This document shows positions 1 through 2,978 of a DNA stretch of 64,000 nucleotides, in pieces. Within the stretch, counting starts at the first letter, position 1; every line of letters begins with the position of its first letter. Made by a program: the position numbers and the translations under genes. This stretch comes from a virus (lineage: Duplodnaviria; Caudoviricetes), in IMG/VR virus record IMGVR_UViG_3300037249_001368, positions 32,001 through 96,000 of that record; one strand, given 5' to 3'. Under the pieces are notes generated by a model. It saw only the letters and a program-made list of their open reading frames with translations, was not told the origin of the DNA and did not search any database.

Positions 1-1092
1 GGTACCAAGAAACTTTACATGCACAAGAACGCATTGGCTTCAGGTATTTGGGCTGAGTTCAACAGATACAAACTGATTCCTGATACCACTCAAGCCGGTG
101 CCTTCCACTGGAAGATAACCATCAGTGGTACAGTAAAAGAAGGTGATGTTTCTTGGGCTGCCGGTGATACTCTGGCAAGTATCGTTTCTCAAATGACTCC
201 TCAGGGTGTAGCCACTTACTTAACATTTACTGTTGCTGACGGTTACATCCAAGTGAGGACCGGTGGTTATTCCTCCAGCACATTTACCCTCACCAACGCC
301 AGTAATGTTGAGTTGAGAGACTTGTCCAAGTTCTGTAAAGTCAATGGTGAAGATGCCGCTCAGACCCACAGAACATGGCAAGCACAATCAGTTCACACCT
401 TGTTCCCTGATTCAGGATACTTGGCAGCCAACACTAAACAATACGCTGTGAGTGGTTTGAACTTATCATACCGTTGCGGTGGTAACTTGGCACGATTCAA
501 GTACTACTTCGAGGTCAGTGGTTCAGGTCATGGTGGTGTTGATTCATACTTAGCTGAATCAGACGTTTCGGCCCGTATGTCAAGAGTTGGTTTCGCCTCG
601 TGTGAAACTGGTTCATCTGCCGCTCAGGCACTGTTCAACAAATACAACGGAAGTTGGGATGAATACATGGAAGCATCCATGATTAAACTATACGACACCC
701 ACACCGATGGTATTGAGTATCAATCCAGAGATAACGGAGAATCTCAGAGTAAGTTCTTAGCCAGCGTTATGACGCTTGACTGGGACGAAACTACTTGGAT
801 TCCTGCATACCCGAAAGCATACCAAGCCGCTCAGATTGAGTTCGCTCAAGTCGGCACCGGCAATCTTCCGACTGACCATGAAATCGGTAAGTTTATGGAA
901 GATAGCAGAATGGCTCGTATGAATGTTGCTATAAACAACATTGGCGGTACCCGTATCACGAACTCATCTTACTATTGGTCGGTTGCGGAGTACATCGCCA
1001 TCAGCGCGTGGTGCTACTTCGGCAGCACCGGCTGTGTCGCCTACCTCAATAAGTACAGCAGCAACGGCGCGCGGGTGGTTCGGGCTTCATAG
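1..1092 (+). CDS. DGR target protein with C-terminal C-type-lectin-like variable region; probably 5'-truncated by the window edge
   Basis: Frame is open from base 1 (first ATG at 19). C-terminus YYWSVAEY..AW.Y...G.V...NK....ARVVR is typical of CLec-fold DGR targets, and the last ~37 codons match the TR. Confidence 0.88.
   Translation, partial: GTKKLYMHKNALASGIWAEFNRYKLIPDTTQAGAFHWKITISGTVKEGDVSWAAGDTLASIVSQMTPQGVATYLTFTVADGYIQVRTGGYSSSTFTLTNASNVELRDLSKFCKVNGEDAAQTHRTWQAQSVHTLFPDSGYLAANTKQYAVSGLNLSYRCGGNLARFKYYFEVSGSGHGGVDSYLAESDVSARMSRVGFASCETGSSAAQALFNKYNGSWDEYMEASMIKLYDTHTDGIEYQSRDNGESQSKFLASVMTLDWDETTWIPAYPKAYQAAQIEFAQVGTGNLPTDHEIGKFMEDSRMARMNVAINNIGGTRITNSSYYWSVAEYIAISAWCYFGSTGCVAYLNKYSSNGARVVRAS
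976..1087 (+). repeat. DGR variable repeat (VR) including IMH
   Basis: Aligns without gaps to 1965..2076. All 16 mismatches are at TR adenines (e.g. AAC->ATC/AGC/TTC/ACC/GCC/TAC/CTC). Ends in GC-rich GGCGCGCGGGTGGTTCGGG. Confidence 0.97.
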
Positions 1093-1373: not shown

Positions 1374-1862
1374 ATGACCGACGGTTTTCAGCGAAAGCCA
1401 AACAGGCCCACAGACACGCAACTCGCTCATACCATAGAGCAGTTTGAAATGAAGCTTCTTAGTTATATCGATAAAGTGATGCCGAGAAAGTTTCGGTTTA
1501 CACTTATCGAGCAGTTGATTAACACCGTCGGTTGTGCAAGGGAACATGCTATTGATGGTTTGTCACTGAACATAGAATATTTCCCACGTGAGAAATACTT
1601 TCACATAAACATCTGTGAAAGTAAGTTCTACAACGTGGAAATTTTACTGAATCATCTCAATGACAATGGGATGCTTTCAGATAAAGCCAAAGCGGAATTT
1701 GACGTGGAAATTAACAATATCCACACCAACGCAGCTCGTCTTCTAAACTCCCTAAGTGTCAGAATCGAAAAATTAAATACATCAGACACATCATTGGTGT
1801 GTCCCCACTATGGGAGGCAGAGTTCTGTAGGTACGCCGAATGAAGAGACCTCTCCTAAATAA
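1374..1862 (+). CDS. avd: DGR accessory variability determinant (Avd-like four-helix bundle)
   Basis: 162 aa helical protein with MPRKFRFTLIEQL motif, between VR and TR/RT. Confidence 0.8.
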   Translation: MTDGFQRKPNRPTDTQLAHTIEQFEMKLLSYIDKVMPRKFRFTLIEQLINTVGCAREHAIDGLSLNIEYFPREKYFHINICESKFYNVEILLNHLNDNGMLSDKAKAEFDVEINNIHTNAARLLNSLSVRIEKLNTSDTSLVCPHYGRQSSVGTPNEETSPK

Positions 1863-1964
1863 GGATTCCCAACTGGTTGAGATATGAATCTAGCTAGTCA
1901 GTCCGATATGGGAAAGCACTGTCCGTCGCGGTTGGTCGTCCCTTGGGCGCTGTTGTCTGGCTCG

Positions 1965-2076
1965 AGGTCGGTTGCGGAGTACAACGCCAACAACGCGTGG
2001 TACTACAACGGCAACAACGGCTGTGTCAACAACAACAATAAGTACAACAGCAACGGCGCGCGGGTGGTTCGGGATT
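1965..2076 (+). ncRNA. DGR template repeat (TR)
   Basis: AAC-rich copy of the VR between avd and RT. Confidence 0.97.
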
Positions 2077-2111
2077 ATTTAGTAGTCAAGGTGGAAGACG
2101 TCGAAAATTGT

Positions 2112-2978
2112 ATGATTCCGCTAAGCAGATGGTATTCGGTTTATTGGCTTTGCAGACAACGTAAAGCCAGTAAACCTTCCCATCTTGCGTTTTATTACGG
2201 GATGCCGATGAATTTGATTGACCTGACCATTTCAATCAAAAACATGGAGTACATTCCTGAGCAAGGCATCTGTTTCATAATCACTTATCCAAGAATCAGA
2301 GAAGTCATCGCTGCAGATTTCATAGACAGACTTGTACAAACTTGGTTCTGTAAAAATCTTATGCCTTATTTGGAGAGATTTTTCTTACACAAGGATTCTT
2401 ACGCCTGTCGTGAAGGAAAGGGCACACTTGCCGCGGTTAGACAAGTCCAAGAATACATTTTTGACCTGAGTTGGGGATTTACCAGAGACGTTTGGCTGGC
2501 GAAATTAGATATCCAAAGTTTCTTTACAAGCATTGATCTGACACAACACCCTGATAAAATCTATTTACAGCACTACTCCAAAGGAGTTGAGTTCTTAGGA
2601 ATGAAAATAAGGTTTGACCGCGTTTTGCCAAGTGACAGAATCGTTCATAATTTCAGATGGAAAGTTGAGATGCACATCCGTAAAGGTACCAACAGTAACA
2701 AATATCTTTACAGAGAAGCAGAGCACTTCAGTCAGATAATAAACTCATACATGGGCTTATTCAAATGGTGTAACGCATATCGTTTGAGAAAAGAAATCCT
2801 GACACAAATCGCTGAAAGCTGTTGGGGTAAAATCTATGTTGTTTCTGAAAATTACACCAAAGTAAATGTGATTTACGGAGCAACCAGACGAGGTCTTTTC
2901 ATGCGTAAAAACAAAGTTCGTAAGAAAGCCAGAACCGCCATGCTAAACGAGTTCTATTCAAAATTAGAAGCAGCCTAA
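2112..2978 (+). pseudogene. DGR reverse transcriptase with an in-frame deletion of the catalytic core (the ORF can extend to ATG 1884, through the TR)
   Basis: Has PRIREVIAADFIDRLVQ, DSYACREGKGT, KLDIQSFFTSID and HPDK..GVEFLG, but SID is joined directly to LTQHPDK. No GLPIG/SQ motif and no YxDD. Confidence 0.8.

Follow-up and report, generated by a model that had tools for sequence, protein, structure and literature searches.

The DGR reverse transcriptase (RT) encoded by this phage lacks its catalytic core owing to a clean in-frame deletion, which is probably a very recent loss-of-function allele that is real in nature. The cassette otherwise follows the conventional Bordetella phage BPP-1 type of DGR, and it resides within the tail and baseplate gene block of an uncultured phage of ~178 kb. 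What we describe here is a case of ordinary decay, or else an artefact, within a conventional DGR, and inactivated DGR RTs have already been documented.

The DGR cassette resides in a tail and baseplate gene block

The stretch of DNA that we analyzed (the window, 64,000 nucleotides) corresponds to positions 32001-96000 of a 178,153-bp IMG/VR virus record. The DGR is located in the first 3 kb of the window, where the following features were assigned.

1..1092, + strand: DGR target gene, 3' end (the whole ORF, G000:C1:29580-33092, starts ~2.4 kb upstream of the window)
977..1087, + strand: variable repeat (VR), coding for the C terminus of the target; a 111-nt direct repeat of the TR with 86% identity
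1128..1151, + strand: GC-rich hairpin of 10 bp with a 4-nt loop, ~40 nt downstream of the VR
1374..1862, + strand: Avd-like accessory protein, 162 aa, between the VR and the TR; assigned by fold only
1884..2978, + strand: RT gene, deleted allele, 364 aa (phrog_1423 reverse transcriptase, E = 9e-37)
1966..2076, + strand: template repeat (TR), in frame within the long RT ORF, with 33 adenines, mostly in AAC codons
2535..2540, + strand: deletion junction, GAT joined to CTG between nt 2537 and 2538, with 390 nt (130 codons) missing

The original prediction held that the remainder of the cassette looks intact and that the VR is already diversified, and both statements agree with our findings. There are 15 mismatches between the TR and the VR over 111 nt, all of which occur at TR adenines (15 of 33) and none elsewhere. 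Because every difference is found at an adenine, the element clearly worked until recently, which is in line with the earlier view that it was once functional. No further copy of the TR is present in the 178-kb record.

The target is 1170 aa in length when counted from its first ATG (the open frame spans 1174-1175 codons) and is probably a tail fiber or receptor-binding protein. It adjoins a baseplate wedge gene (phrog_219), and the phage structural genes around the cassette also include those for head closure and portal proteins. In related loci L008, L011, L013, L006, and L009, a homolog of the target is likewise encoded in this place ahead of the RT gene. An AF2 model of the last 363 aa of this VR-bearing protein was poor (pLDDT 50, with the VR part below 50), and its match to Lcl_C (PF07603) was sub-threshold at 14.6 bits (cut-off 34.9 bits).

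The hairpin downstream of the VR has a DNA folding energy of -14 kcal/mol (z = -2.9 versus shuffles), and comparison with BPP-1 (PMC3240598) makes it a candidate target-recognition hairpin of the DGR. A second GC-rich hairpin at positions 1265-1284 (AGGTGCGCGCAAACGCACCT, minus-strand reading) has a terminator-like appearance; it is located in the AT-rich spacer that separates the VR hairpin from the Avd-like gene.

No family match was observed for the Avd-like protein in Pfam, NCBIfam, or PHROG. Its AF2 model is a four-helix bundle (pLDDT 82) whose best PDB matches are the PF05635-type proteins 2rld and 2gsc (TM 0.83-0.87), and comparisons with the BPP-1 Avd structures 4dwl and 8ub7_C yielded TM values of 0.70-0.78. 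Homologs of this protein are likewise encoded between the target and the RT in L013, L006, and L008.

The TR is embedded in the RT reading frame, which begins some 27 codons before it and may thus include the TR-encoded peptide as an N-terminal extension of the translated protein. This arrangement is seen in loci L005, L006, L008, L009, L011-L014, and L016. In most related loci, a single tblastn match extends from the TR-encoded peptide into the RT, even when identity is as low as 33% (L016). The TR also differs a little among close strains: the AAC run of P0134 is longer by one Asn codon, and P0002 carries NGNG where the window has NSNG.

The deletion removes RT motifs 4 and 5

At the junction, the RT frame reads through KLDIQSFFTSID directly into LTQHPDKIYLQHYSKGVEFLG, such that FFTSID is fused to LTQHPDK. 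Alignment places the gap at residues 219-348 of the 494-aa full-length form, or exactly 130 codons. The claim that the RT has lost its catalytic core by a clean in-frame deletion is therefore borne out, although the missing piece is smaller than the ~150 aa or more that had been estimated. There is no DD dipeptide in the 364-aa RT and no ambiguous base (N) in the DNA.

The deleted segment comprises the long linker between motifs 3 and 4, motif 4 itself, and motif 5. As a consequence of its position, the window allele lacks both the DGR ...SQ signature of motif 4, which is GNQTSQ in the full-length alleles of this lineage, and the catalytic YxDD of motif 5, which is represented by HYTDD in those alleles. 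What remains in the 364-aa protein is the N-terminal fingers (motifs 1-3), motifs 6-7, and the thumb. Among solved structures, the full-length allele is closest to the BPP-1 DGR RT (8ub7_A), and in an alignment with this protein its IGSLTSQ and YMDD are inside the gap, with FFPSID and GINFLGY just outside it.

Alignment to an RT profile, which the original prediction had named as a check, was carried out with Pfam RVT_1 (PF00078). The window RT scored 20.0-20.7 bits and matched model positions 14-86 only, whereas the full-length allele P0124 scored 50.2 bits over positions 14-205. The gathering cut-off for this family is 29.6 bits, which places the window RT below and P0124 above the threshold.

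The gene given earlier as 2112-2978 has an open frame that extends farther upstream. Position 2112 is an internal Met codon of the frame that opens at 1884, and it is a candidate for the true start. Residue 43 of the BPP-1 RT (bRT) aligns to residue 108, so the RT domain proper would begin near residues 66-77.

Close relatives of the RT are full length

A protein search recovered 312 RT homologs, most of which are 460-494 aa in length. Among the full-length relatives, P0124 (494 aa) has the same amino acid as the window RT at each of the 364 retained residues (218 to the left of the gap and 146 to the right), and several other full-length members of its cluster differ from the window RT at 1-3 positions. 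The 90%-identity cluster of the full-length RT holds 18 near-identical members from ENA and Logan assemblies. The deleted RT forms a cluster of one, found in JGI/IMG only.

Among the 120 best homologs, 115 carry both the core and the YxDD motif; another two are fragments cut off at contig ends, and in two others (P0003 and P0078) YxDD has been lost through substitution. No internal gap was found in this set other than that of the window protein. P0003 (468 aa, a cluster of 51 sequences, 52% identical) reads HYTDYT where all others have HYTDDT, so that a point change appears to have inactivated the second catalytic aspartate in a cluster with many members; P0078 similarly gives no match to YxDD. 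The RT frame is uninterrupted over the matched stretch in all 13 related IMG/VR loci, of which 12 have the motif 4 signature and 11 have HYTDD. The exceptions for motif 5 are L016, which yielded no match, and L017, which reads RFVDD.

Near-identical DNA for the full-length allele was absent from the viral and metagenome contig collections (query P0002), as was any match to a degenerate pattern taken from inside the deleted segment. The 812-aa neighbor protein has no relatives in viral contigs, and GenBank phages contain no near match to the RT.

We considered two additional features of the RT gene and rejected both. Extra divergence of the C-terminal part of the RT after the deletion was suggested by P0002 (7 of 146 positions versus 4 of 218), but P0124 has no differences in either part. 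An insertion or intron in relatives at the site of the deletion was suggested by a long match in L007, which instead consists of the VR plus the RT.

Given that P0124 is identical at all retained residues, that the deleted allele is a singleton, and that the VR differs from the TR only at adenines, the deletion is either extremely recent or absent from nature altogether.

The DGR lineage appears to be active

The target protein was compared with eight close relatives drawn from its own 90% cluster and the next two clusters. Every VR peptide in this group is different, and the differences fall at positions encoded by AAC codons in the TR, with flanking residues conserved. Given this variety of VRs among close relatives, the DGR of this lineage appears from these sequences to have kept diversifying actively, with the window VR being one variant among many. 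Outside the VR, the target differs at 10-71 positions in five full-length members of its 90% cluster.

The record contains no substitute RT

The original prediction had raised the possibility of a second RT in this genome. Six-frame searches of the 178-kb record, conducted with RVT_1 and separately with the full-length protein, revealed none; the only matches were to the two halves of the window RT gene and to the VR. The missing 130-aa segment also has no relocated copy in the record, where its best match has E = 2. CheckV rates the 178,153-bp record as 77% complete, and related contigs from other assemblies are 178,418, 178,747, and 179,142 bp in length. Since these relatives assemble independently to 178.4-179.1 kb, the record is probably close to the whole genome, with little missing. 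With no second RT in the record, an RT could reach this genome only from a co-infecting sibling phage or the host.

A probable recent loss-of-function allele

The explanation that we favor, and consider probable, is that the 390-bp in-frame deletion is a fresh event in a lineage that otherwise retains an intact RT. The YxDD of motif 5 carries two of the three catalytic aspartates of an RT, and motif 4 shapes the nucleotide-binding pocket. The 364-aa protein would be unable to polymerize and hence to make cDNA. If no cDNA is made, then mutagenic homing would cease, and the genome would keep whichever VR was present when the deletion arose. The functions of the BPP-1 DGR work in trans. A phage with the deleted allele presumably could not rewrite its VR alone; a co-infecting sibling with the full-length allele could complement it in trans, because the deleted-allele genome has undamaged Avd, TR, and VR recognition elements that do not differ from those of full-length siblings. 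This mechanism draws on what is established for RTs and for the BPP-1 DGR (PMC3240598, PMC5703328). We infer that the deleted molecule exists in nature, beyond the assembly.

An assembly or library artefact is an unlikely, though not a far-fetched, alternative. The phage in the sample would then have the 494-aa RT, and the gap would be due to a mis-join, a chimeric fragment, or a path through a rare variant. Consistent with this possibility, the deleted allele has been seen once compared to 18 full-length sequences, and both of its flanks are identical in P0124. Furthermore, the exact target (with the same VR), the Avd-like protein, and the four next downstream proteins are present in both JGI/IMG and Logan assemblies, whereas the 364-aa RT and its shorter alternative-start forms (356 and 288 aa) occur in JGI/IMG only or nowhere, and none comes from Logan. 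However, a contig that broke at a variant site could account equally well for the lack of this RT in Logan, and the Logan copies may come from another sample.

The structure of the junction also argues against an artefact. Breakpoints were compared at the protein level, where their contexts are unrelated (FFTSID followed by TELSAER versus LEQDSH followed by LTQHPDK) and share no peptide repeat. Collapse mediated by a repeat during assembly, which needs ~20 nt or more of identity, thus seems unlikely as judged from these peptides. Because the breakpoints seem to offer no repeat for a de Bruijn jump, reads that span the junction probably exist. In addition, the contig continues for 178 kb straight across the junction.

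We regard as improbable a third explanation, wherein the deletion is a maintained state that locks in a successful receptor specificity or that depends on a stable supply of RT in trans from the host, a helper phage, or a full-length sibling. A variant of this proposal is that the stub might serve as a regulator that binds Avd or RNA. An in-frame deletion that spares the fingers and the thumb makes a folded stub conceivable, and the trans action of DGR functions in BPP-1 is compatible with an external RT. Yet an in-frame outcome is expected by chance alone in one of three cases, and the record carries no second RT. There is also no sign of persistence, since the retained residues have accumulated zero substitutions relative to the full-length allele. 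The deleted allele represents one of 19 close sequences, and the same gap is found in none of the others among the 120 best homologs and in none of the 13 related loci. The earlier suggestion of a DGR frozen on one receptor variant, if taken as an established state, is at odds with a singleton allele that matches P0124 exactly and has 18 full-length relatives. It is highly improbable that the stub is a maintained allele in a lytic jumbo-phage population, where it would act either as a free-rider that keeps a successful receptor variant by using the RT of full-length siblings or as a diversification damper that still binds Avd and TR RNA in mixed infections.

Comparison with known DGRs

The cassette resembles the BPP-1 DGR (mtd-avd-TR-brt). 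Both have the order of a target with a C-terminal VR, an Avd protein with a four-helix bundle, a TR, and an RT. Both also have TR and VR sequences that differ only at adenines, repeats with a GC-rich 3' end, and a hairpin that follows. The full-length RT is nearest to bRT (8ub7_A), and the helper protein matches the Avd fold (4dwl and 8ub7_C). Unlike BPP-1, the window RT lacks motifs 4 and 5, the TR is within a long RT reading frame, the helper does not match Avd by sequence, and the hairpin is ~40 nt from the VR. Moreover, BPP-1 is a small temperate phage, whereas the DGR examined here is carried by a large phage of ~178 kb with a baseplate wedge homolog.

Disabled DGR RTs were reported previously in the DiGReF survey (Schillinger et al. 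2012, PMC3521204), in which the genes were disrupted by transposon insertions, nonsense mutations, or frameshifts. The VRs of these elements still show adenine-specific changes, and the authors interpreted the disabled RTs as very recent inactivations or sequencing errors (PMC3521204). The window element shares with these cases adenine-specific VR differences next to a disabled RT gene, but its lesion, a clean internal deletion, preserves the reading frame.

Among GenBank phages, the closest named relatives of the RT belong to Bacteroides phage DGRs (B. uniformis phages F1/F2/F4, PMC8143477, and human-gut phage records), which are 31-35% identical to the window RT over ~76% of the protein. These phages likely have hosts from the same phylum. 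In contrast to the window element, they have intact RTs and small siphovirus-like genomes, and the relationship is distant.

The significance of these findings beyond annotation is small. A DGR can appear complete, with a target, Avd, TR, hairpin, and diversified VR, and nevertheless have a dead enzyme; therefore, surveys that score activity from cassette anatomy should check the RT motifs. The lineage is a modest addition to the known hosts of DGRs, with an actively diversifying DGR in a ~178-kb phage that has a baseplate wedge homolog, and a TR inside the RT frame. The natural pair of alleles, one full length and the other with its core deleted between identical flanks, could provide a control for studies of this lineage. 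Similarly, the target relatives P0136, P0137, and P0156-P0161 constitute a natural series for following DGR turnover in a large phage.
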